A DNA stretch of 64,000 bases from the NCBI RefSeq assembly GCF_024223415.1, contig NZ_CP100503.1, one strand, 5' to 3'. The notes beneath the pieces were generated by a model. The model was not told where the DNA came from and did not search any database. It saw nothing but the letters and a program-made list of their open reading frames with translations. The position numbers and the translations under genes are program-made. Below are positions 25,391 to 42,835 of this stretch, in pieces; within the stretch, counting starts at the first letter, position 1, and each line of letters starts with the position of its first letter. The stretch is from Escherichia coli (GTDB taxonomy: Bacteria > Pseudomonadota > Gammaproteobacteria > Enterobacterales > Enterobacteriaceae).

Positions 25391-25424
25391 ATAACTTCGT
25401 ATAGCAAACATTATACGAAGTTAT
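25391..25424 (+). other. lox recombination site (loxP-like, 13-bp inverted arms, spacer GCAAACAT)
   Basis: ATAACTTCGTATA-GCAAACAT-TATACGAAGTTAT; arms identical to loxP, spacer differs at one position from GCATACAT as I recall it. Confidence 0.85.
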
Positions 25425-25661: not shown

Positions 25662-25964
25662 ATGAAGATTATTTCGGTAAAAACATTGAGGGATTTTTGG
25701 TCTGTGAATCCCGATGCAGAACAACCATTAAAGGCCTGGGTTGACGAAGTCTCCAAGGCCACCTGGAAAAGCCCGGCTGATATCAAAGCGCAGTACCGAT
25801 CTGCCAGCATTCTTAAAAACAGGCGGGTTGTCTTCAACATCAAAGGTAATGACTACAGATTAATTGTTGCAATTGCTTATCAGCGAGGATGGATGTTCGT
25901 TAAGTTTATTGGAACACATAAGGAATACGATGCCATCGACGCGGATACAATAGAGCTGGAGTAA
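25662..25964 (+). CDS. higB: HigB-like RelE/ParE-superfamily toxin (100 aa)
   Basis: Small basic protein (…KGNDYRLIVAIAYQRGWMFVKFIGTHKEYD) upstream of an HTH antitoxin; toxin-first order typical of HigBA. Confidence 0.6.
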   Translation: MKIISVKTLRDFWSVNPDAEQPLKAWVDEVSKATWKSPADIKAQYRSASILKNRRVVFNIKGNDYRLIVAIAYQRGWMFVKFIGTHKEYDAIDADTIELE

Positions 25965-25967
25965 ATC

Positions 25968-26327
25968 ATGAACATTAAACCTATCCGTACAGAACAAGAT
26001 TATCAGGCCGCACTACGCGCGGTCGAACCTATGTTCGATAACGAACCGGAAATGAACACCCCGGAAGGTGATTTCTTTGAGATAATGTGCCTGCTTATTG
26101 AAGAGTATGAAAAAAGACATTACCCAATTGAACCGCCTACACCCATTGAAGCGATTAAGTTCCGTATGGAACAGCAAGGGTTGACAGTGAAAGATCTGGA
26201 ACCGGCGATTGGTAAGTCGAACCGTGTTTACGAAGTTCTGAATGGAACGCGAAATTTAACGTTACCAATGATTAGGCGTTTGCACGTACAGTTTGGCATT
26301 CCTCTCGAAAGTCTGGTTGGTGTGTGA
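25968..26327 (+). CDS. higA: HigA-like HTH (XRE-family) antitoxin (119 aa)
   Basis: C-terminal helix-turn-helix (…LEPAIGKSNRVYEVLNGTRNLTLPMIRRL…); 3-bp gap after toxin gene. Confidence 0.6.
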   Translation: MNIKPIRTEQDYQAALRAVEPMFDNEPEMNTPEGDFFEIMCLLIEEYEKRHYPIEPPTPIEAIKFRMEQQGLTVKDLEPAIGKSNRVYEVLNGTRNLTLPMIRRLHVQFGIPLESLVGV

Positions 26328-26333
26328 CTTAAA

Positions 26334-27386
26334 ATGTCTAATGTCCTGACCGTACACCAAAATTTGCCTGCATTACCGGTCGATGCAACGAGTGATGAGG
26401 TTCGCAAGAACCTGATGGACATGTTCAGGGATCGCCAGGCGTTTTCTGAGCATACCTGGAAAATGCTTCTGTCCGTTTGCCGGTCGTGGGCGGCATGGTG
26501 CAAGTTGAATAACCGGAAATGGTTTCCCGCAGAACCTGAAGATGTTCGCGATTATCTTCTATATCTTCAGGCGCGCGGTCTGGCAGTAAAAACTATCCAG
26601 CAACATTTGGGCCAGCTAAACATGCTTCATCGTCGGTCCGGGCTGCCACGACCAAGTGACAGCAATGCTGTTTCACTGGTTATGCGGCGGATCCGAAAAG
26701 AAAACGTTGATGCCGGTGAACGTGCAAAACAGGCTCTAGCGTTCGAACGCACTGATTTCGACCAGGTTCGTTCACTCATGGAAAATAGCGATCGCTGCCA
26801 GGATATACGTAATCTGGCATTTCTGGGGATTGCTTATAACACCCTGTTACGTATAGCCGAAATTGCCAGGATCAGGGTTAAAGATATCTCACGTACTGAC
26901 GGTGGGAGAATGTTAATCCATATTGGCAGAACGAAAACGCTGGTTAGCACCGCAGGTGTAGAGAAGGCACTTAGCCTGGGGGTAACTAAACTGGTTGAGC
27001 GATGGATTTCTGTCTCTGGTGTAGCTGATGATCCGAATAACTACCTGTTTTGCCGCGTCAGAAAAAATGGTGTTGCCGCGCCATCACCCACCAGCCAGCT
27101 ATCAACTCGCGCCCTGGAAGGGATTTTTGAAGCAACTCACCGATTGATTTACGGGGCTAAGGATGACTCTGGCCAGAGGTACCTGGCCTGGTCTGGACAC
27201 AGTGCCCGTGTCGGAGCCGCGCGAGATATGGCCCGCGCCGGAGTTTCAATACCGGAGATCATGCAAGCTGGTGGCTGGACCAACGTAAATATTGTCATGA
27301 ACTATATCCGTAACCTGGATAGTGAAACAGGGGCAATGGTGCGCCTGCTGGAAGTTGACATCCTCCCCCACCTTCGCACTTCGTGA
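26334..27386 (+). CDS. cre: Cre tyrosine recombinase with IS-altered C-terminus (350 aa vs 343 in P1)
   Basis: MSNVLTVHQNLPALPVDATSDEVRKNLMDMFRDRQAFSEHTWK... matches P1 Cre through ...MVRLLE; last residues VDILPHLRTS are encoded by the inserted IS end. Confidence 0.9.
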   Translation: MSNVLTVHQNLPALPVDATSDEVRKNLMDMFRDRQAFSEHTWKMLLSVCRSWAAWCKLNNRKWFPAEPEDVRDYLLYLQARGLAVKTIQQHLGQLNMLHRRSGLPRPSDSNAVSLVMRRIRKENVDAGERAKQALAFERTDFDQVRSLMENSDRCQDIRNLAFLGIAYNTLLRIAEIARIRVKDISRTDGGRMLIHIGRTKTLVSTAGVEKALSLGVTKLVERWISVSGVADDPNNYLFCRVRKNGVAAPSPTSQLSTRALEGIFEATHRLIYGAKDDSGQRYLAWSGHSARVGAARDMARAGVSIPEIMQAGGWTNVNIVMNYIRNLDSETGAMVRLLEVDILPHLRTS

Positions 27387-27405
27387 CTCAGGAGGGGGAT
27401 TCCCA

Positions 27406-28638
27406 TTAGTGGGTGACGGCTGATTGCTCAGCGTCTGGTTCCTGCTTCAACGGGCGGTCTGACTGCACCGTCCCTCCACAGGCAAGTACGGCGTGCCCCG
27501 CCGCTAAAATGTTGCGAGCGCCGTTTACATCGGCGTTCGCTGTATATCCACAAGCCCGACACACGAATTTACTTTGTGTCAGGCGGTTTTCTTTCGCTGT
27601 ATGACCACAGCACGCGCAACGCTGGCTTGTGTACGCTGGCGGAACAGCAAGCACCTGACCACCACGCCAGAGCTGCTTGTACTCAAGCTGGCGGCGCATT
27701 TCATACCAGCCCTGATCCAGTATCGAACGGTTTAAACCTGATTTTGCCCGGACATTGCGCCCCGGCTGGCTGACCGTACCCGCTGCTGACTTTGACATGT
27801 TGCTGACCTTCAAATCCTCAATGACTATCATTGCGTGGTTTTTGCTGACGGTCGTTGTGACTTTGTGAAGGTAGTCCCTGCGGATATTTGCAATACGGGA
27901 ATGCAGTTGCTGTATTTTGCGTTTCTGCTTCTGCCAGTTGTTGCTGAATTTGACCCTGCGGCTTAACTGTCGCTGAAGTCTCGCCAGCTTCTTCTGGTTT
28001 TTCTGAAAACTGTTTACAGGTTCAAAGACTGTGCCATCTGACAGCGTGGCGAGTTTAGCCACGCCAGCATCCAGACCGACTATCGTTGTGCTTGTGTGAT
28101 TTGGTTCTGCCGTTTCAATTTCAACCTGAAACGAGATATACCACTGTCCCGCTAACTGACTGATTGTCGCATTTTTGATTTTACCGTTCACACGTTGAGA
28201 TTGCCGGAATTTTACCCACCCAAGACCTGACGGTAGCTTCACTCTGCGATTTTCAAGGCAGCAATATTTCTCAAAGTTCACAAAACGGATTGAGTCTCTG
28301 CCCTCATTTTTTCGTTTCCATACCGGAGCCTTAGCTGCGAGCTTTTTATCAAAACAACGTTTCCATGCGGTATGCAGGTCTTTCAGCTTTTGTTGCAGAT
28401 TGTCGGTATAAGCATCCTGTAAGAAGATATATTCCGGCATTTTTTTCCACACTGTAATCATCCGGTTCAACTCGAAAGCCGAAGGTAACTTTTCGCCTGA
28501 GCCAAGTACGCGCTTTGTCTCCGCAAGACCTAAATTCCAGACAAAACGGGCGCAACCACATAACTGCCGCAAACGCTGCGACTGTTCATGCGTTGGTTCC
28601 AGTCTGAATTTGTAGGCTTTCAGGATTAGCATCATCAT
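27406..28638 (-). CDS. tnpB: TnpB (RuvC-like, RNA-guided nuclease family) of IS-A (410 aa)
   Basis: RuvC motifs ([29 protein letters not shown]) and CxxC...CxxC zinc finger; C-terminal half near-identical to the IS-B TnpB. Confidence 0.85.
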
Positions 28639-28690
28639 TCAGTGTGTAGTAGATTTTCTTGCAATATTACTGTTTTTACGGCCAACCTCA

Positions 28691-29095
28691 ATGCAAAAAT
28701 ACAAAATCAATCGTTCAAGACATGCTGCCTTCCTTTTGCATGTTCATCTTGTCTTTGTAACAAAATACCGTCGAAAGATACTGGGAGAGTTACACTGTGC
28801 AGCATTCCATCAGTATGCAGCAGAAGTCTGCCGTGACTTTGGGGCAGAACTTAAAGAAAGTAACGGAGATGTCGATCATGTCCACATGCTGATCGAATAC
28901 CCACCAACAGTGCAGCTTTCGGTACTGGTTAACTCACTGAAAGCAGTGACATCCCGCCGTCTGCGAAACGAATTTCTTGATTTGCGGGGGGCATACGGAA
29001 AAGCCGTGCTCTGGTCGAGGTCATACTTTGCTGGCTCCTGCGGAGGTGCGCCGCTGGAAGTTGTGAAGCAATATATTCAACATCAGCGAGGCTGA
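28691..29095 (+). CDS. tnpA: TnpA Y1 (HUH) transposase of IS-A (134 aa)
   Basis: HVHLVF (HUH) motif and IS200-like size. Confidence 0.8.
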   Translation: MQKYKINRSRHAAFLLHVHLVFVTKYRRKILGELHCAAFHQYAAEVCRDFGAELKESNGDVDHVHMLIEYPPTVQLSVLVNSLKAVTSRRLRNEFLDLRGAYGKAVLWSRSYFAGSCGGAPLEVVKQYIQHQRG

Positions 29096-29200
29096 GCACC
29101 CTTCGGGCTTTTCAAGCCCGTCCAAATTCCCCTGCCGCCTTATGTCGGCGGGAGTACCCTTTGGAAGTTAAGATGGCGATTAGCCATTAACGCGTAAATG

Positions 29201-29217
29201 ATTGCTCTAATTCTTTG
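29201..29217 (+). promoter_or_regulatory. C1-operator-like motif ATTGCTCTAATTCTTTG
   Basis: Partial consensus match upstream of 29234 ORF; similar site at about 29677-29693. Confidence 0.4.
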
Positions 29218-29233
29218 ATATTTATGGTGACAT

Positions 29234-29545
29234 ATGAGAAAGGATTTCAACATCGACGGAAAATATGTAGTGCTGTCTGTAAGCACTAATATTCAGTCGC
29301 CAGCCGTCATTGTCACTGTAAAGCTGAGCGATAGAATACCTGATATTGACTCAATATCCGTTGCGTTCCCTGTCAAAAGTATTCGTAGTGCTGAACATTT
29401 CGTGATGAATGCCACCGAGGAAGAAGCACGGCGCGGTTTTGCTAAAGTGATGTCTGAGTTTGGCGAACTCTTGGGTAAGGTTAACAATGTCCTTTCAATC
29501 AGTTCAGCAAGGTCCAAAGCGTTAACAGCTTCCATGATGAAATAA
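29234..29545 (+). CDS. Hypothetical protein (103 aa)
   Basis: ORF with upstream operator-like motif; no motif recognised. Confidence 0.35.
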   Translation: MRKDFNIDGKYVVLSVSTNIQSPAVIVTVKLSDRIPDIDSISVAFPVKSIRSAEHFVMNATEEEARRGFAKVMSEFGELLGKVNNVLSISSARSKALTASMMK

Positions 29546-29569
29546 AAAAAGCCTGGCAAGGAGCCAGGC
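29544..29569 (-). terminator. Rho-independent terminator candidate for ant paralog ii (A-run, GCCTGGC-loop-GCCAGGC on plus)
   Basis: 7-bp stem; T-run follows on minus strand. Confidence 0.5.
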
Positions 29570-29759
29570 TGCACAAAAGAGCGGGTTTGTATTCCGCATC
29601 CAATCAATCAAGAAGGAGTATAGCACACAGGTACTGAAGTGAAAAAATGTGATTCGCGATTAACAAAATATCTACCATTGCTCTAATTGATTGATATAAT
29701 TAAGCCGCAGTTTTTGTCAACTACGAAGACATTGCCATTATAGACTCCGTGACATCATT

Positions 29760-29783
29760 GGCGGCCGAAAGGCCGCCTTTTTT
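29760..29783 (+). terminator. Rho-independent terminator candidate (GGCGGCC-GAAA-GGCCGCC-T6)
   Basis: GC-rich 7-bp stem, tetraloop, T6. Confidence 0.55.
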
Positions 29784-29785
29784 AA

Positions 29786-30850
29786 TCATTCAGCCGCCAC
29801 AGGTTTTAACAAGCCAGCATCGAGCAGTTTACGCGTCAACCACTGCTGGCCTTTCCCCGTTAATTGGGGCGTCAGCCGTATCTGGTAGCCCTCTTCATCA
29901 TCCAGCACCACTTCTTTCACTGTGAAATATCCGGCGTTTATGTACTGCTGGAACGGTACATTTTTACGTCCACCGGACGCTATCAGGATGCCGTTCTCCC
30001 GTAACCAGGCAAACAGCGCGTTTTGCTTAAGTCCAACAACCTTTGCAAAATTCCCAATCAGGATTCCATTAGCCACTGATACCCGGTCGGCAAAATCGAC
30101 TTTAGGAGCGGCGGCCACCAGCTGCTGATTTAGCTGGTGGGCTTTCTGTTCCAGAAGTTGCTTTTGTTCAGCCAACTCGGCAGCCAGGCGGAGGGCTTCG
30201 GGGAGTGTCTGGGGGATCGCTGGAGAAGCAGCGCTAACCTGCTGCAACTCCTCCAGCTTGTCGATCAACGAACGGCGGACCGCTTTTGACTCGCGCGCGG
30301 CAACTCGCAGGGCTTGTTTGTAGGTCATGGTTATGACCTCAAAAGAGCGCCCAGCCCTTGTGCCATGGGATTTTACGAAAGTTTCGTAAAATTCCCCATC
30401 AAGTTCATCCTTAATTCTATTGAGAAAATCGTTATTGCGGATCTCATTTTCCCCACATAGCTTGCGCGCCTCATTGACCATCTTTAACAGTGTCTGGCTG
30501 TCGATTGTGTCGCCCGTACTGGGGATAACATCCATGGCTGGTAGTGGTGTGGATTCTATCAAAGGCTTTGTAACGACAACATCTGGTTTGCTTGCTTTCA
30601 TTCTGTGTGCCTCCTTGCGTGCTTCGGCGGTTACGGTTGCATAATCAAGACGACCCTGTTCGAGCAGGTATTCACGGATATCAGTTAGCAGAATGCGGTG
30701 AACCGCGTTCTTGTCCTTTCTCCGGTAAAGTTGTTTGGTGATCATGAAGTAGTTGGCTATAACACCAGGAATGTCCCTGGCGCTGATACAGATTGTGTGC
30801 TGTTCAATAGCCTCGATCATTTCTTCACGGGTAACTAATGACGTTCTCAT
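29786..30850 (-). CDS. ant: Antirepressor Ant-like protein, paralog ii (354 aa; Rha-like central domain)
   Basis: Shares N- and C-terminal domains with paralogs i and iii; different central domain; coupled to icd. Confidence 0.65.
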   Translation of the reverse strand: MRTSLVTREEMIEAIEQHTICISARDIPGVIANYFMITKQLYRRKDKNAVHRILLTDIREYLLEQGRLDYATVTAEARKEAHRMKASKPDVVVTKPLIESTPLPAMDVIPSTGDTIDSQTLLKMVNEARKLCGENEIRNNDFLNRIKDELDGEFYETFVKSHGTRAGRSFEVITMTYKQALRVAARESKAVRRSLIDKLEELQQVSAASPAIPQTLPEALRLAAELAEQKQLLEQKAHQLNQQLVAAAPKVDFADRVSVANGILIGNFAKVVGLKQNALFAWLRENGILIASGGRKNVPFQQYINAGYFTVKEVVLDDEEGYQIRLTPQLTGKGQQWLTRKLLDAGLLKPVAAE

Positions 30851-38100: not shown

Positions 38101-40068
38101 ATCGGCGTACTCCGGCAGGAAACGATAGGTGATCCTGCGATAGTACAGGTCCATGTCAGTACATACGCGGTCCATATCCCTGATTATTGAGAAGATCGGA
38201 CGGGCTTTCTCGTGCTCAATCACGCCGTCTTCATTGACCGAGGTCGTTACGCCATTGTTGGCTTTGGCTGCCGCTTCCGCCTGCTGACGCAATTCTTCAT
38301 ACGCCGCCAGTTGTTCTTCCGTAAGTGGTGCATCCTGCTGGTGTTCGTCCAGTTCCGGGATCTCCACGGTATCCTTAACGTCTTCCGCCGTTTTAAGCGT
38401 TGTCCAGCGATGGAATATGCCGCGCAGCGCATCAAGGTTTTCAAAGCCCACCAGCGCCATTTTTTCTTCAACTTCACCGCTAATTTTCTGTACCGTTTCC
38501 AGCCTGGTCTTGCCGAAGAATTTAACGAAGTCATCAGGACCGTAGATCCCCATCTTCTGCCAGTATTCCTTCGGCAGCACATGAGAAAGCATGTTGTATG
38601 CATCGATCGGGGTGTTAACGACTGGCGTTGCAGTCAGGAGAACCGGTCCGCGCCCACCATTCTTTTTCATCAGGTACGCGTTTTTAATTGCCATATCCCG
38701 CGCCGATTGCGCCACCGCGCTGGTGGGCAGATAGGCCAGTTGTGACGCTTCGCGACCATTTTTATAGCTATTGCGGTAGTTGTGACCTTCGTCAGCGATC
38801 ACACTATCGAAGCCCATATCCTCAAAGTACGGATACTTCTCTGCTTTTTCGGTGCCGGTATCTGAATACTCCGACAATACCCGGCGACGCGCGGCCTCTT
38901 TGCGGTGGGAGTCGGAGTCCATTGCGCTGGCTACGCGCCCGGCGGCAACGAAGTCATAAAGCATATCCTGTGCATGCTCATCTACGGTGTCATCACGTAG
39001 CGGAATGCGGGCGTATTGTTCTTTGGTAAACACGACTGCACGGTAATTTGAGTGCGGGATCGCGTTCATCCGCGCCGTGATAGTGGCTTCATCTGCCAGC
39101 TTAAGAGCATCGCGCATAACTGGAGTGCCATCAGTACCAAGAACAGGTTTACCGTTCTCATTGAGCACCGGCACCTGGCGAATCTGATCGCCATCCATCA
39201 GCACATCAAGACCGACGAACAGGTAGTTACTGAATGCCTCTTCACTCAGGAACTCTTTTGCTTCGTAATACCAGTTTTCCAGCACTGATTTAGGCACTAC
39301 ATACGCAGTACGGGTGGAACGACCGTTCTCATAGTTGAACGCCTCAAGCGCCAGCGCGGTCGTGGTTTTACCCAGCCCGGTACCGAAGCCCAGGATGCCG
39401 CGCCCATCTTCGGACAGTCGGCGCACCTCGCTATTCTGGTAATCAAATGGCTGTCGCTTACCGCTTAATCCCTTCAACCCAAGCGGATCGCCAGAGTGTT
39501 CATACGGGATATTGCTATTGAACACATCGTTGTATTTGGCAACCAGCTCATCGTAGCGATCGTGCGTCTTGATCCACTTATTGAACTGGTCCTCAAGCAG
39601 TGCCATCTGCTCGCGGTAGCCGTTCGCCGTCGCGCTATCTTTGCCACCGATACGCGCACCATTGAGATACTTTTCCAGCTGTGCCGGGAACCCGGTCGCG
39701 TTTTCACCTGATTTACGGTCCCACTCGTAGCGGATCTCGCCTGTTTCTTTATCCTTGCGCTGGACGACACCGTATCGGTGCCCGACGAACAGACCATCAC
39801 CACCGTGATAGGTGTCAGAAACCATTTCGTCGCCTTCCAGCTGCACTGACTGCACATAGCGAAGATCCGGATAGCCGTTTTCCTGCAAAAATTCCAGAAT
39901 GACGGAACGGTCGAACCAACGGCTATTGAGCTTAAAGCGGATATTCTCTGCTGGCGTCTTGATGCGCTTCTCTTCGATCGCTGCCAGCTGATTAAGGACG
40001 TTGTTCTTTACCCAGTGCGCCGTAAAGCCCCGTCCTTCAGGTCGGGGATATAAGGCGCGGTTTTCCAC
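35179..40068 (-). CDS. DarB-like SF2 helicase-domain protein, 5'-truncated by IS-B (1629 aa; first 19 codons IS-derived)
   Basis: Walker A GFGTGLGKTT and DExH VIADEGHNY; the ORF start lies inside the IS left end (40012-40068), and no methyltransferase-like N-terminal domain (expected from P1 DarB as I recall) is present. Confidence 0.55.
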   Translation of the reverse strand: MENRALYPRPEGRGFTAHWVKNNVLNQLAAIEEKRIKTPAENIRFKLNSRWFDRSVILEFLQENGYPDLRYVQSVQLEGDEMVSDTYHGGDGLFVGHRYGVVQRKDKETGEIRYEWDRKSGENATGFPAQLEKYLNGARIGGKDSATANGYREQMALLEDQFNKWIKTHDRYDELVAKYNDVFNSNIPYEHSGDPLGLKGLSGKRQPFDYQNSEVRRLSEDGRGILGFGTGLGKTTTALALEAFNYENGRSTRTAYVVPKSVLENWYYEAKEFLSEEAFSNYLFVGLDVLMDGDQIRQVPVLNENGKPVLGTDGTPVMRDALKLADEATITARMNAIPHSNYRAVVFTKEQYARIPLRDDTVDEHAQDMLYDFVAAGRVASAMDSDSHRKEAARRRVLSEYSDTGTEKAEKYPYFEDMGFDSVIADEGHNYRNSYKNGREASQLAYLPTSAVAQSARDMAIKNAYLMKKNGGRGPVLLTATPVVNTPIDAYNMLSHVLPKEYWQKMGIYGPDDFVKFFGKTRLETVQKISGEVEEKMALVGFENLDALRGIFHRWTTLKTAEDVKDTVEIPELDEHQQDAPLTEEQLAAYEELRQQAEAAAKANNGVTTSVNEDGVIEHEKARPIFSIIRDMDRVCTDMDLYYRRITYRFLPEYADAVQQLADSLPKQATSEDDDSDDSITQQSQYSLIDKGEFIQLQVPEAFEQEVNKRLARFGIDEQTVTHPVTPKYAKLIATLKEFFPEGKQIIFTDEKTQHQKLKRIICNALNLEPSKVGILNAQTVAEAGKTGKKLKAVKPPKELPDEPTDAQIAKYNEQMALYDAYIAQQNEMSLGGLEKIAADFQEGRTPIIICNKKAEVGINLHRGTTDIHHLTLPWTPASIAQRNGRGARVGSNRASVRVHYYCGKGSFDEYRLKTLKRKAGWISDILRSDKSEMENADANDMIEMQMYTAKDDGERLAMMQVQMDKAKAAQRARQKEQATIDLQNYIKAQHAAGEDVEVLTAELERSKAELEKTTAEVAKFKQAVMAKAADNADWKARWGSVHHTDRMLLAQYRASLKNAIQRKANISQAISRYEKLLNRTQKAATDIKRLRPLVEDAINKGILDVDPDLVNHASEFLVIGDRSWRVGQYYDCAGDIVRIKSLDFDSQRADVEIIFTFKGTKSGNWDVKTLDKQVDVTPDEDAVMQKISGGVSIAGINDIISCDDFYRFQQRGMIKITDSYGVQTTESGYSIDFVGTYTDPLKHAVYPDRRDGALKSSIAKWVLGMMSEGNNRQIRSAETFLVELFGSNYGDVIASYGDTLSPEAIQEKIADAIARMPEKTSQGATRNGDSELEVTNAIFGTNEFRASDYEITTAQFGTIGIYSNKAEIKQAMDAASARIAAERKANLNHAVAALTQSWVTAIREAATTGKITPAIADVVNDGSKFMDAYQMDAVKLPSAYGQLSYRMTYNLVSMFSDLAILGLVDLNEVTPELLSMRKNHVEILQRINTVLAGRTDEEKQADADRINLALGNITEEEIAARNEKQEELSSIQGDATSIAQSLGLNYRVSTADLKMMYAPKFAAGEVFGLQEASGMKGVLFRAKDAIKAKFGARWLPAKAKNSDFPGNWWIIETKHNVADVLAVIQQYA

Positions 40069-40605
40069 CTAACCAGGTGTTTGCTGTTGTTCAATGTATT
40101 GGCGGATGATGGATATTGGTGCGCCACCGCAGCTACTGGCAAAATAGCTGGGACTCCATAAAACGCCTTTGTAGTAATATCGGGCTGCAATATCTGGTCG
40201 ATCTCGTCGCAATAATCTACTCGATACGCCCTTGAGACTGTTCACCAGGCTGGATATCGCCAATTTGGGGGGATAGTTAATTAGCAGGTGAACGTGATCT
40301 CGTTCTCCATCCATTTCAACCAGTTCAGCTTCAAAATCAGCACATACACTTGAAAAGTAAGTGCGTAGTTTTTCTATTGCGTCATGGTCAAAAATCTGAC
40401 GTCGGTATTTTGCGACAAAGACCAGGTGAACGTGCATCAGGAAGACGCAGTGTCTTCCACGTCGGATATCAGTTTCTTTTTTTATGGACCAAAGTATAAT
40501 TTGGCTTATGAAACGACTACAAGCTTTCAAATTCCAGTTAAGACCAAATGGACAGCAGGAGCGTGAAATGAGGCGCTTCGCGGGCGCATGTCGTTTCGTT
40601 TTCAA
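40069..40605 (-). CDS. tnpA: TnpA Y1 (HUH) transposase of IS-B (N-terminus of track ORF probably over-extended)
   Basis: HVHLVF motif; homologous to IS-A TnpA. Confidence 0.75.
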   Translation of the reverse strand: MKTKRHAPAKRLISRSCCPFGLNWNLKACSRFISQIILWSIKKETDIRRGRHCVFLMHVHLVFVAKYRRQIFDHDAIEKLRTYFSSVCADFEAELVEMDGERDHVHLLINYPPKLAISSLVNSLKGVSSRLLRRDRPDIAARYYYKGVLWSPSYFASSCGGAPISIIRQYIEQQQTPG

Positions 40606-41716
40606 TCGTGCTCTGGCGCTTCAGAATGAGAATCATGAGGCCGGGAACAAATATATTTCTTATGCAAAGATGACTTCCTGGCTGGTTGAATGGAAAAATG
40701 CTACTGAAACGCAATGGCTTAAAGATTCTCCCTCACAGCCATTGCAGCAGTCACTGAAAGACCTTGAGCGAGCCTACAAAAATTTCTTTCAGAAGCGTGC
40801 CTCTTTTCCCCGCTTCAAAAAGCGGGGACAGAATGATGCATTCCGCTATCCGCAGGGCGTTAAGCTCGACCAAGGGAACGGTCGTATTTTTCTGCCAAAA
40901 CTTGGCTGGATGCACTACCGGAACAGCCGTCAGGTCTCGGGGATTGTGAAAAACGTCACTGTCAGCCAGTCCTGCGGTAAGTGGTACATCAGTATTCAGA
41001 CAGAAAGTGAAGTATCAACTCCGGTTCACCCTTCAGCATCAATAGTCGGTCTGGATGCAGGCGTGGCTAAACTCGCCACGCTGTCAGATGGCACAGTCTT
41101 TGAGCCTGTAAACAGTTTTCAGAAAAACCAGAAGACGCTGGCGAGACTTCAGCGACAGTTAAGCCGCAAGGTCAAATTCAGCAACAACTGGCAGAAGCAG
41201 AAATGCAAAATACAGCGACTGCATTCCCGTATCGCAAATATCCGCAGGGACTACCTTCACAAAGTCACAACGACCGTCAGCAAAAACCACGCCATGATAG
41301 TCATTGAGGATTTGAAGGTCAGTAACATGTCAAAGTCAGCAGCGGGTACGGTCAGCCAGCCGGGGCGCAATGTCCGGGCAAAATCAGGTTTAAACCGTTC
41401 GATACTGGATCAGGGCTGGTATGAAATGCGCCGTCAGCTTGAGTACAAGCAGCTCTGGCGAGGCGGTCAGGTGCTTGCGGTTCCGCCAGCGTACACAAGC
41501 CAGCGTTGCGCGTGCTGTGGTCATACAGCGAAAGAAAACCGCCTGTCACAAAGTCAATTCAGATGCCAGGTATGTGGATATACAGCGAACGCCGATGTAA
41601 ACGGCGCTCGTAACATTTTAGCGGCGGGGCACGCCGTTCTTGCCTGTGGAGGGATGGTGCAGTCAGGCCGCCCGTTGAAGCAGGAACCCACCGAAATGAT
41701 TCAGGCGACAGCCTGA
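40484..41716 (+). CDS. tnpB: TnpB of IS-B (410 aa)
   Basis: RuvC-like motifs and zinc finger. Confidence 0.85.
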
Positions 41717-41752
41717 ACGTAGCAGGAATCCACGTCCTTCAGGGCGTGGAGG

Positions 41753-42835
41753 ATGTCAATGGAGCCTCCCCTTCTCTGCCGACGTTCAGGGGGGTTTATG
41801 AAAACACCTCTCGTCACCCGTAATGACATAGCCGAAGCGATCGCCCTGCATACTGCCTGTATGCCGACACGGGAGATCCCCGGCGCAATTGCCAACTATT
41901 TCATGATAACCAGACGTTTTTATACCCGAACAGATAAGGCTGTGATCAACAAGCTACTGATAGCCGAGATCAGGGATTATTTGATTGAACAAGGACGTCT
42001 ACGTTACGCAACAGTGGCAGCAGAAATGAGAAAGGAGGCACATAGAATGACCGGTAATAATTTAAATGTTGAAAAACCAGCACCTGTTGCTTCAGCTACG
42101 CCAGCACCAGCCGTGAATATCATCCCCAACACCGGAGACACAATCGACAGCCTGACACTGTTAAAGATGGTCAATGAAGCGCGTAAGTTATGTGGGGAAC
42201 CAGAGGTTCGGAACAACAAATTCATCGAAAAAATACTCGATGAGCTTGATGGTGAGCACTACACAAAAAGTGTAGTGGAAAAAATGAACAAAACATCAAT
42301 GCTTGTCATAACCATGACTTTCAAACAAGCCCTGCGAGTCGCCGCGCGCGAGTCAAAAGCGGTCCGCCGTTCGCTGATCGACAAACTGGAAGAATTACAG
42401 CAGGCAAACTCACCTACCCCATCGATCCCCCAGACATTACCAGAAGCCCTACGCCTGGCTGCCGAGTTGGCAGAACAGAAAATGCAGCTGGAACAACAGC
42501 TGGTGGCCGCAGCCCCTAAAGTCGATTTTGCCGACCGGGTATCAGTGGCCAATGGAATCCTGATCGGGAACTTTGCAAAGGTCGTTGGACTTAAGCAAAA
42601 CGCCCTTTTCTCATGGTTGCGCCAGAACGGCATTCTCATGGCTTTTGGTGCGCGCAAAAACGTACCGCGCCAACAGTACATCAACGCCGGGTATTTCACG
42701 GTGAAAGAAGTGGTGCTGGATGATGAAAATGGCTACCAGATACGGCTGACGCCCCAATTAACGGGTAAAGGCCAGCAGTGGTTAACTCGCAAGCTACTTG
42801 ATGCTGGTTTGTTAAAACCAGTAGCAATAGGTTAA
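41753..42835 (+). CDS. ant: Antirepressor Ant-like protein, paralog iv (likely start MKTPLVTRN near 41798); upstream icd reduced to its last 14 codons by IS-B
   Basis: Rha-like central domain similar to paralog ii; the sequence right after the IS end is homologous to the icd 3' end. Confidence 0.6.
   Translation: MSMEPPLLCRRSGGFMKTPLVTRNDIAEAIALHTACMPTREIPGAIANYFMITRRFYTRTDKAVINKLLIAEIRDYLIEQGRLRYATVAAEMRKEAHRMTGNNLNVEKPAPVASATPAPAVNIIPNTGDTIDSLTLLKMVNEARKLCGEPEVRNNKFIEKILDELDGEHYTKSVVEKMNKTSMLVITMTFKQALRVAARESKAVRRSLIDKLEELQQANSPTPSIPQTLPEALRLAAELAEQKMQLEQQLVAAAPKVDFADRVSVANGILIGNFAKVVGLKQNALFSWLRQNGILMAFGARKNVPRQQYINAGYFTVKEVVLDDENGYQIRLTPQLTGKGQQWLTRKLLDAGLLKPVAIG

Follow-up and report, generated by a model that had tools for sequence, protein, structure and literature searches.

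The window analysed here, a stretch of 64,000 nucleotides (nt) from Escherichia coli contig NZ_CP100503.1 (assembly GCF_024223415.1), carries a cre gene of the phage P1 type whose last codons are interrupted by an insertion sequence (IS). The cre open reading frame (ORF), as translated from the window, occupies positions 26334-27386 on the + strand and encodes 350 amino acids (aa); its product is called Cre350 and the interrupted allele cre::IS in what follows. The interrupting sequence, 27355-29172, is a complete IS200/IS605-family element of 1,818 base pairs (bp). We consider it probable that Cre function was retained when this IS605-type element was inserted after the codon of E340, and that the TnpB protein of the element holds it in place. 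The allele is real and circulating and otherwise an ordinary insertion, which leaves the understanding of Cre or of IS605 systems unchanged. The parts of the interrupted gene and of the element, including its left end (LE) and right end (RE), are the following.

26334-27354, + strand: native part of cre, codons 1-340 and base 1 of codon 341, with the catalytic Y324 and with helix N as far as E340
27355-27386, + strand: right end of the IS read in the cre frame (RE frame 2); with G27354 it yields V341, then DILPHLRTS and a TGA stop
29173-29183, + strand: orphaned cre end, AT GGC GAT TAG, which would give (D)GD-stop again if the IS were excised
27355-29172, - strand: whole IS, with the IS605-type layout LE - tnpA (reverse) - tnpB (forward) - RE
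27355-27405, - strand: RE, an imperfect hairpin CCCCCTCC...GGTGGGGG and then the 10-nt tail AGGATGTCAA, with cleavage after TCAA (27355-27358)
27406-28638, - strand: tnpB, 410 aa, RNA-guided endonuclease family
28691-29095, + strand: tnpA, 134 aa, Y1 (HUH) single-strand transposase
29096-29172, - strand: LE, which starts CTTAACTTCC and has an imperfect hairpin (CCCGCCG...CGGCAGGG) about 20 nt further in
29173-29176, - strand: target and transposon-adjacent motif (TAM), CCAT on the tnpB-sense strand (ATGG on the + strand), not duplicated
27339-27354, - strand: predicted 16-nt TnpB guide, CUUCCAGCAGGCGCAC, the flank 3' of RE and antisense to the last cre codons, assigned from knowledge of the family
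27355-27540, - strand: predicted omega/reRNA scaffold, formed by the tnpB 3' end and RE, of presumed extent

The interrupted cre gene and the ends of the element

Cre350 is identical to P1 Cre (NC_005856, 436-1467) at 338 of its first 340 residues, the exceptions being L4V and A252P. After E340, where P1 Cre has DGD and a stop, Cre350 reads VDILPHLRTS and stops. The region around Y324 (NIVMNYIRNLD) is unchanged and the protein matches PF00589; near-identity to P1 Cre, catalytic Tyr324 included, together with a lox site 910 bp upstream, identifies the gene as cre. An earlier reading of this stretch, made from the letters alone (the sequence-only reading), had placed the insertion in the last cre codons, with the P1 match running through ...MVRLLE and then into VDILPHLRTS from the IS, and had described the catalytic tyrosine region as intact; the comparison with P1 Cre bears out both statements. 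In-silico removal of 27355-29172 joins CTGGAAG to ATGGCGATTAG, and the end of the ORF becomes ETGAMVRLLEDGD followed by a stop (...MVRLLEDGD-stop). The 64-nt joint so obtained is present at 100% identity in natural P1-like plasmids, with 647 matching PLSDB records, 295 of them at ≥99%. The P1-type EDGD-stop that the same reading expected from precise removal is thus restored in silico. The analysis adds to that reading a predicted TnpB guide directed at the restored site, the wide spread of the allele, the distinction of the element from IS609, and the separation of the neighbouring gene c8 from its promoter.

TnpB scores 361 bits against NCBIfam NF040570 (cut-off 100) and matches Pfam families PF12323, PF01385 and PF07282, and its residues 3-385 align with ISDra2 TnpB (8h1j/8exa) with an E value of 4e-43. 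It carries the RuvC motifs GLDAG, IEDL and ADVNGARNI and a CxxC...CxxC zinc finger (CACCGH...CRACGY), so that RuvC-like D-E-D motifs, a zinc ribbon and full-length similarity to a characterised TnpB place it among the TnpB/OMEGA nucleases. TnpA scores 139 bits against NF033573 (cut-off 55), matches PF01797 and aligns with IS608 TnpA (2a6m/2vhg, E 1e-18), with HUH within DHVHML and the catalytic Tyr within VVKQYIQHQ; the exact TnpA protein is present on at least 1000 contigs. Full-length matches (1-1818) to the IS were found in 94 E. coli records. Hairpins are predicted some 20 nt inside the end of LE and 10 nt inside that of RE, a spacing as in IS608. The whole is an IS605-type element that is apparently active.

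The trinucleotide AAG stands at both junctions (27352-27354 and 29170-29172), and this insertion by itself leaves a 3-nt ambiguity of the boundaries. The ends were fixed with 13 further full-length copies of the IS, all independent insertions (14 with this one), and with the empty site of P1. The contexts of the 13 copies are pemK, hok, traC, the pilV shufflon, dadA/dadX, a DUF2057 gene, tail-fibre assembly genes and phage If1. All copies begin TTGACATCC right after a flank that is different each time, and all finish ...GGAAGTTAAG followed by ATGG, with a variable fifth base (14/14 insertions). A shift of the ends by 1-3 nt through the AAG microhomology is ruled out, since in the 13 copies unrelated flanks abut TTGACATCC and ATGG is invariant. 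The identical ends of the other copies make the coordinates 27355-29172, already proposed from the letters alone, exact. ATGG is present only once in the P1 empty site and is therefore the target, outside the element; there is no target-site duplication and there are no terminal inverted repeats. On the - (tnpB-sense) strand the order is thus 5'-CCAT, LE (CTTAACTTCC...), tnpA in reverse, tnpB forward, RE (...GGAGGATGTCAA) and a variable flank. The CCAT target overlaps cre codons 341-342, and the IS was inserted directly 3' of it in the bottom strand. Family scores of TnpA and TnpB, a CCAT target without duplication and ends conserved in 14 insertions together confirm the assignment to IS200/IS605 made in the sequence-only reading.

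Predicted TnpB guide RNA and proposed retention of the element

Scarless excision has been established experimentally for the IS200/IS605 family (Meers 2023, PMC10055086), and this, with the lack of a duplication, would make cre::IS a reversible allele. TnpB is known to cut scarless donor joints, with a TAM that is the motif used by TnpA (PMC10055086, PMC8612924). Both the CCAT and the protospacer are present in P1: on the - strand the restored joint reads CCAT directly followed by CTTCCAGCAGGCGCAC, the flank being CTTCCAGCAGGCGCAC(CATT). As tnpB is convergent with cre, its predicted transcript and guide are antisense to the cre 3' end. A guide RNA finds some support in a RAGATH-18-like element at 27439-27482 on the - strand, in the tnpB 3' end, RAGATH-18 being a published scaffold motif of TnpB guide RNAs (Ren 2024), and in the stable fold predicted for 27339-27540 (z = -4.0).

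TnpB aligns end to end with that of ISDra2, and the logic described for ISDra2 and the Geobacillus ISGst element (Karvelis 2021, PMC8612924; Meers 2023, PMC10055086) is expected to be common to them and to the cre-inserted element: the TAM corresponds to the target flanking LE, the guide to the sequence flanking RE, and the scarless donor joint is cleaved. Two differences stand out. The TAMs of ISDra2 and ISGst are AT-rich (TTGAT/TTTAT types), whereas the TAM predicted here is the GC-containing CCAT; and the natural guide is aimed here at a gene of a phage-plasmid family found in hundreds of related replicons.

By analogy with these systems, the element would have entered the cre gene of a P1-like phage-plasmid as single-stranded DNA, in the bottom strand and 3' of CCAT. 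TnpA would excise the top strand as a circle, and the donor would be resealed scarlessly. TnpB would load an RNA made up of a scaffold, from the tnpB 3' end and RE, and of a guide, from the adjoining cre sequence; it would then cut the resealed joint of CCAT and CTTCCAGCAGGCGCAC, and recombination with a sister copy would put the IS back. If so, precise excision should occur, and revertants would be destroyed or re-converted, so that they should be rarer than TnpA activity alone predicts. We infer likewise that IS-free relatives of P1, with a wild-type cre beside CCAT, would be cut by TnpB.

Probable activity of Cre350 and spread of the allele

Published mutagenesis sets the frame for the activity of Cre350. 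Cre keeps its full activity when 2 or 3 residues are removed from its end and loses all of it when 4 or more are removed; E340 is critical and contacts R192 of the neighbouring protomer, while D341 is not essential (Duplus-Bottin 2021, PMC7997657). In the same work the double mutant E340A D341A lost about 10% of activity, and the C-terminal fusion Cre-GGSG-VVD retained recombinase activity (PMC7997657). Residues 330-343 constitute helix N, whose docking is in trans within the synaptic tetramer but in cis when Cre is free; the crystal structure 2HOI has no model for G342 and D343. Because the IS lies directly after the E340 codon, only the dispensable DGD residues are replaced, and the sequence comparison, in which Cre350 is native through E340, means that helix N is kept as far as E340. 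Set beside the engineered variants (delta-2/delta-3, E340A D341A and Cre-GGSG-VVD), Cre350 is Cre(1-340) with an unrelated extension, in which E340 stays and D341, G342 and D343, positions found dispensable, are altered. It differs from those variants in having a natural, transposon-encoded tail of 10 residues in its native bacterial plasmid context.

By this analogy Cre350 very probably works in lox recombination, that is, in dimer resolution and cyclization. The sequence-only reading had allowed that the recombinase may still work, a suggestion to which the published activity of the delta-3 protein and the retained E340 lend backing (PMC7997657). The insertion would be tolerated by falling at the exact boundary, after E340, that mutagenesis set as the limit of Cre function. 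For users of Cre, it offers a natural Cre(1-340)+10 variant.

An exact-protein index of public sequences, the only source in which the junction turned up, has the 350-aa protein on 153 contigs (228 index blocks); these belong to draft assemblies of E. coli and to a single metagenome, and their number shows that the junction is no assembly artefact. In every Cre350 locus that was read, the IS stands directly behind the ORF; the alternative raised with the sequence-only reading, that the 350-aa end occurs in genomes lacking the IS, thus found no instance among the loci read. The lox site is kept in all cre::IS loci. When eight of these loci were aligned with the window, about 3.7 kb (~25834-29550) proved identical save for a short mosaic patch in tnpB, and the backbones diverged on both sides, with 4-95 differences per 500 nt upstream. 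One locus (L016) has an extra IS of the DDE_Tnp_1 type upstream of lox (1664-2644). Another (L020) switches about 200 bp past the IS (from ~7040) to another c8 allele or 3' half and then to ref (Ref-like, RecA_dep_nuc); at the corresponding position the window has a gene of 354 aa with an ANT domain instead of the Ref-like gene. As far as the sequences indicate, there was one insertion event, and the allele would since have spread onto recombining P1-like backbones.

It is possible, though we hold it doubtful, that cre::IS acts as an RNA-guided drive or weapon among P1-like phage-plasmids, by which incoming or co-resident IS-free relatives would be cut at cre and either eliminated (exclusion) or, through recombinational repair, converted to cre::IS (homing). 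The predicted protospacer is part of the 64-nt joint that 647 PLSDB records match. The identical block of about 3.7 kb on diverged backbones, with a breakpoint about 200 bp from the IS, is compatible with the footprint of such conversions and equally with ordinary recombination. A TnpB with a native guide on a widely shared gene would in any case be a natural system in which to study transposon retention, homing and exclusion between phage-plasmids.

Several observations weigh against a retained Cre and an element held by TnpB. The truncations of Cre were assayed with over-expressed protein and a yeast reporter, and they are deletions, not the replacement by 10 residues present here. The new tail is partly hydrophobic (V341, I343, L344) and could disturb the docking of helix N or the cis-autoinhibited state. 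The cre-IS junction is rare: it was found in 0 of 5,426 complete E. coli genomes, 72,556 PLSDB plasmids and 50,697 phage records. Moreover, cre is nucleotide-identical in all cre::IS copies, and its persistence may reflect recency and not selection for function. On the side of the element, LE and RE fold with z values of only -2.6 and -1.4 against shuffles, and no clear likeness is seen between their stems. The RAGATH-18-like match reaches 28.1 bits (RF03064, E 0.026), below the gathering score of 44.9, and Rfam gave no match at gathering level in the region scanned. The TnpB of Helicobacter pylori IS608 was inactive in the assay of Meers 2023 (PMC10055086), so that activity is not to be assumed for every TnpB.

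Some of these observations would also fit an IS that cripples or inactivates Cre and persists by recency, by small RecA/Xer-independent losses or by hitch-hiking, as a mildly deleterious passenger. Helix N (residues 330-343) is needed both for docking in trans and for autoinhibition in cis, a salt bridge between D341 and R139 reinforces the docking, and the loss of about 10% in E340A D341A (PMC7997657) points the same way, as do the longer, partly hydrophobic tail and the rarity of the allele in complete-genome, plasmid and phage records; with identical cre in all loci, there has been no evolutionary time in which selection could be read. We nevertheless judge a crippled Cre unlikely, given that the delta-3 protein (1-340) is fully active, that a C-terminal fusion is active and that E340 is kept. 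The allele is moreover carried on 153 contigs with several diverged backbones, everywhere with lox. Of 11 CCAT/ATGG sites in cre, the occupied one is the sole site that leaves residues 1-340 intact; such a use of 1 site in 11 is expected if only Cre-proficient insertions spread, although the statistics are weak.

Three further features of the locus bear on Cre and on its downstream neighbour c8.

25391-25424, + strand: lox site, the Cre substrate, with 1 mismatch to loxP (0 sites expected by chance) and the spacer GCAAACAT instead of GCATACAT
27292-27323, + strand: predicted sigma-70 promoter of c8 (Pc8), equivalent to P1 1394-1425, with -35 TTGTCA and -10 GATAGT, hexamers identical
29234-29545, + strand: c8 homologue, 103 aa, equivalent to P1 c8 1518-1829 ('establishment of lysogeny, putative')

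In all nine other cre::IS loci (L015-L023, positions 3058-3091) lox has the canonical spacer GCATACAT. The changed spacer of the window would mean poor recombination with wild-type loxP and preserved self-pairing, though it may also be a sequencing error.

The insertion puts 1.8 kb between c8 and its annotated promoter, and c8 now follows the LE hairpins and tnpA, which has the same orientation as c8. This raises the alternative that the IS is kept or selected for an effect outside Cre, with c8 under read-through from tnpA and the establishment of lysogeny or the regulation of neighbours altered. In the P1 annotation Pc8 (1394-1425) indeed falls within cre, with the c8 coding sequence starting at 1518, and in the window the hexamers are intact at 27292-27323 and the c8 start is now at 29234; all statements on c8 and Pc8 derive solely from this GenBank annotation. 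Pc8 is, however, a predicted promoter, c8 has a putative function in the annotation, and a promoter and terminator consensus scan around the IS and c8 performed no better than shuffles. We consider an advantage through c8 quite improbable, and we retain as the probable reading the one in which Cre works and TnpB holds the element in cre.

Relatives of the element and neighbouring sequence

Identity with IS609 was rejected: the alignment with K-12 IS609 (1503161-1504908) is confined to 647 bp of tnpB and the 12 nt at the terminus. The two elements belong to the same family and have a common layout, LE - tnpA reversed - tnpB forward - RE (insQ/yncK in K-12); the 647-bp tnpB stretch is 95.7% identical, and the last 12 nt of RE (GGAGGATGTCAA, with cleavage after TCAA) are identical. 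In contrast, megablast and blastn find no relationship between the two in LE, in tnpA, in the 5' part of tnpB or in the hairpin of RE, and the RE stem of IS609 has a different sequence ahead of the same 10-nt tail. IS609 also adjoins a different target, TTAT in K-12 or TTAC in two copies in the window as against CCAT, and it measures 1,748 bp as against 1,818 bp. In P1-like plasmids the reported site of IS609 is not cre but the interval that separates the head-processing operon from the lysis operon (Venturini 2019, PMC6906374); TTAT as a target of IS609 is also found in that paper. The tnpB of the cre-inserted IS is annotated 'InsQ', the name of the IS609 gene in K-12, and many BLAST matches to the tnpB half are InsQ or IS609-like. 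The half with tnpA and LE occurs in 113 of 5,426 complete E. coli genomes, 121 of its 128 places being on plasmids; the IS609-like tnpB half occurs in about 4,900 of the 5,426. On these alignments, the element is a previously uncharacterised mosaic that is related to IS609 but distinct from it, is carried mainly by plasmids and has a CCAT target. As an IS609 relative with a GC-containing target and TAM, it may be of interest for the mining of TnpB nucleases.

That the ends are after all 1-3 nt off or the element is a copy of IS609, in which case the target and guide assignments would be wrong, is extremely improbable: the AAG at both junctions and the many InsQ/IS609-like annotations among matches to the tnpB half would suit such an error, but 13 copies fix the ends, and IS609 shares only 647 bp and 12 nt and adjoins TTAT/TTAC.

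IS608 of H. pylori, which serves as the model for structure and mechanism in the family, is another point of comparison. Its TnpA can be aligned over the whole length, including HUH and the catalytic Tyr; it likewise inserts 3' of a tetranucleotide without duplication, its RE likewise ends TCAA, about 10 nt past a hairpin, and in its LE some 20 nt separate hairpin and cleavage site, the distances predicted for the hairpins here. The target of IS608 is TTAC, not CCAT, and its tnpA and tnpB are co-oriented, whereas they are divergent here, as in IS605.

Two more elements of the IS605 family lie in the window, at 40012-41759 (+) and at 62292-64000 (+, cut by the end of the window). Both are of the true IS609 type: they are 92.8% identical to K-12 IS609, have TTAC at LE and end GGAGGATGTCAA. 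They point the same way, are separated by about 22 kb and show 8 differences in 1,709 nt. In the complete copy, 40012-41759, tnpA looks intact and tnpB encodes 410 aa; this copy may be the insertion between the head-processing and lysis operons described in Venturini 2019. With these two copies, the number of TnpB genes in the window comes to three, each with a native guide of its own.

The filamentous single-stranded DNA (ssDNA) phage If1 (NC_001954 / U02303) carries, at 5306-7137 of its record, a 97.3% copy of the cre-inserted IS adjoining ATGG. In this genome of 8.45 kb the copy, about 1.8 kb, is annotated merely as 'ORF348, homologous to eryA' and an intergenic region. For a transposon that moves as a single strand, a phage with an ssDNA genome is a natural target.

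Within tnpB, a patch of 9 single-nucleotide differences (27778-27909) sets the cre::IS copy of the window apart from all other cre::IS loci. Over the patch, this copy has the allele seen in other copies of the same IS (L012 and L013), and one cre::IS locus (L017) has another patch; the sequences suggest that these patches may be short tracts of gene conversion from one IS copy to another. When the two IS609 copies resident in the window were tested as the source of the 9-difference patch, they matched it only in part, the full match being to the L012/L013 allele.

Between lox and cre, at 25662-26327, there is a higB-like toxin ORF (100 aa, PF09907) with a partner ORF of 119 aa. P1 has cra where this pair stands, and every cre::IS locus carries the pair. 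Neither these two ORFs nor c8 nor the downstream ORF of 354 aa matched a family in NCBIfam. Just past c8, on the opposite strand, 29544-29618 (-) forms a strong GC hairpin followed by a T-run (AGCCTGGCTCCTTGCCAGGCT TTTTTTT). Sub-threshold Rfam matches to SorX/MicX at 29543-29792 reflect this terminator-like hairpin, which is most likely the intrinsic terminator of the convergent 354-aa ANT gene.

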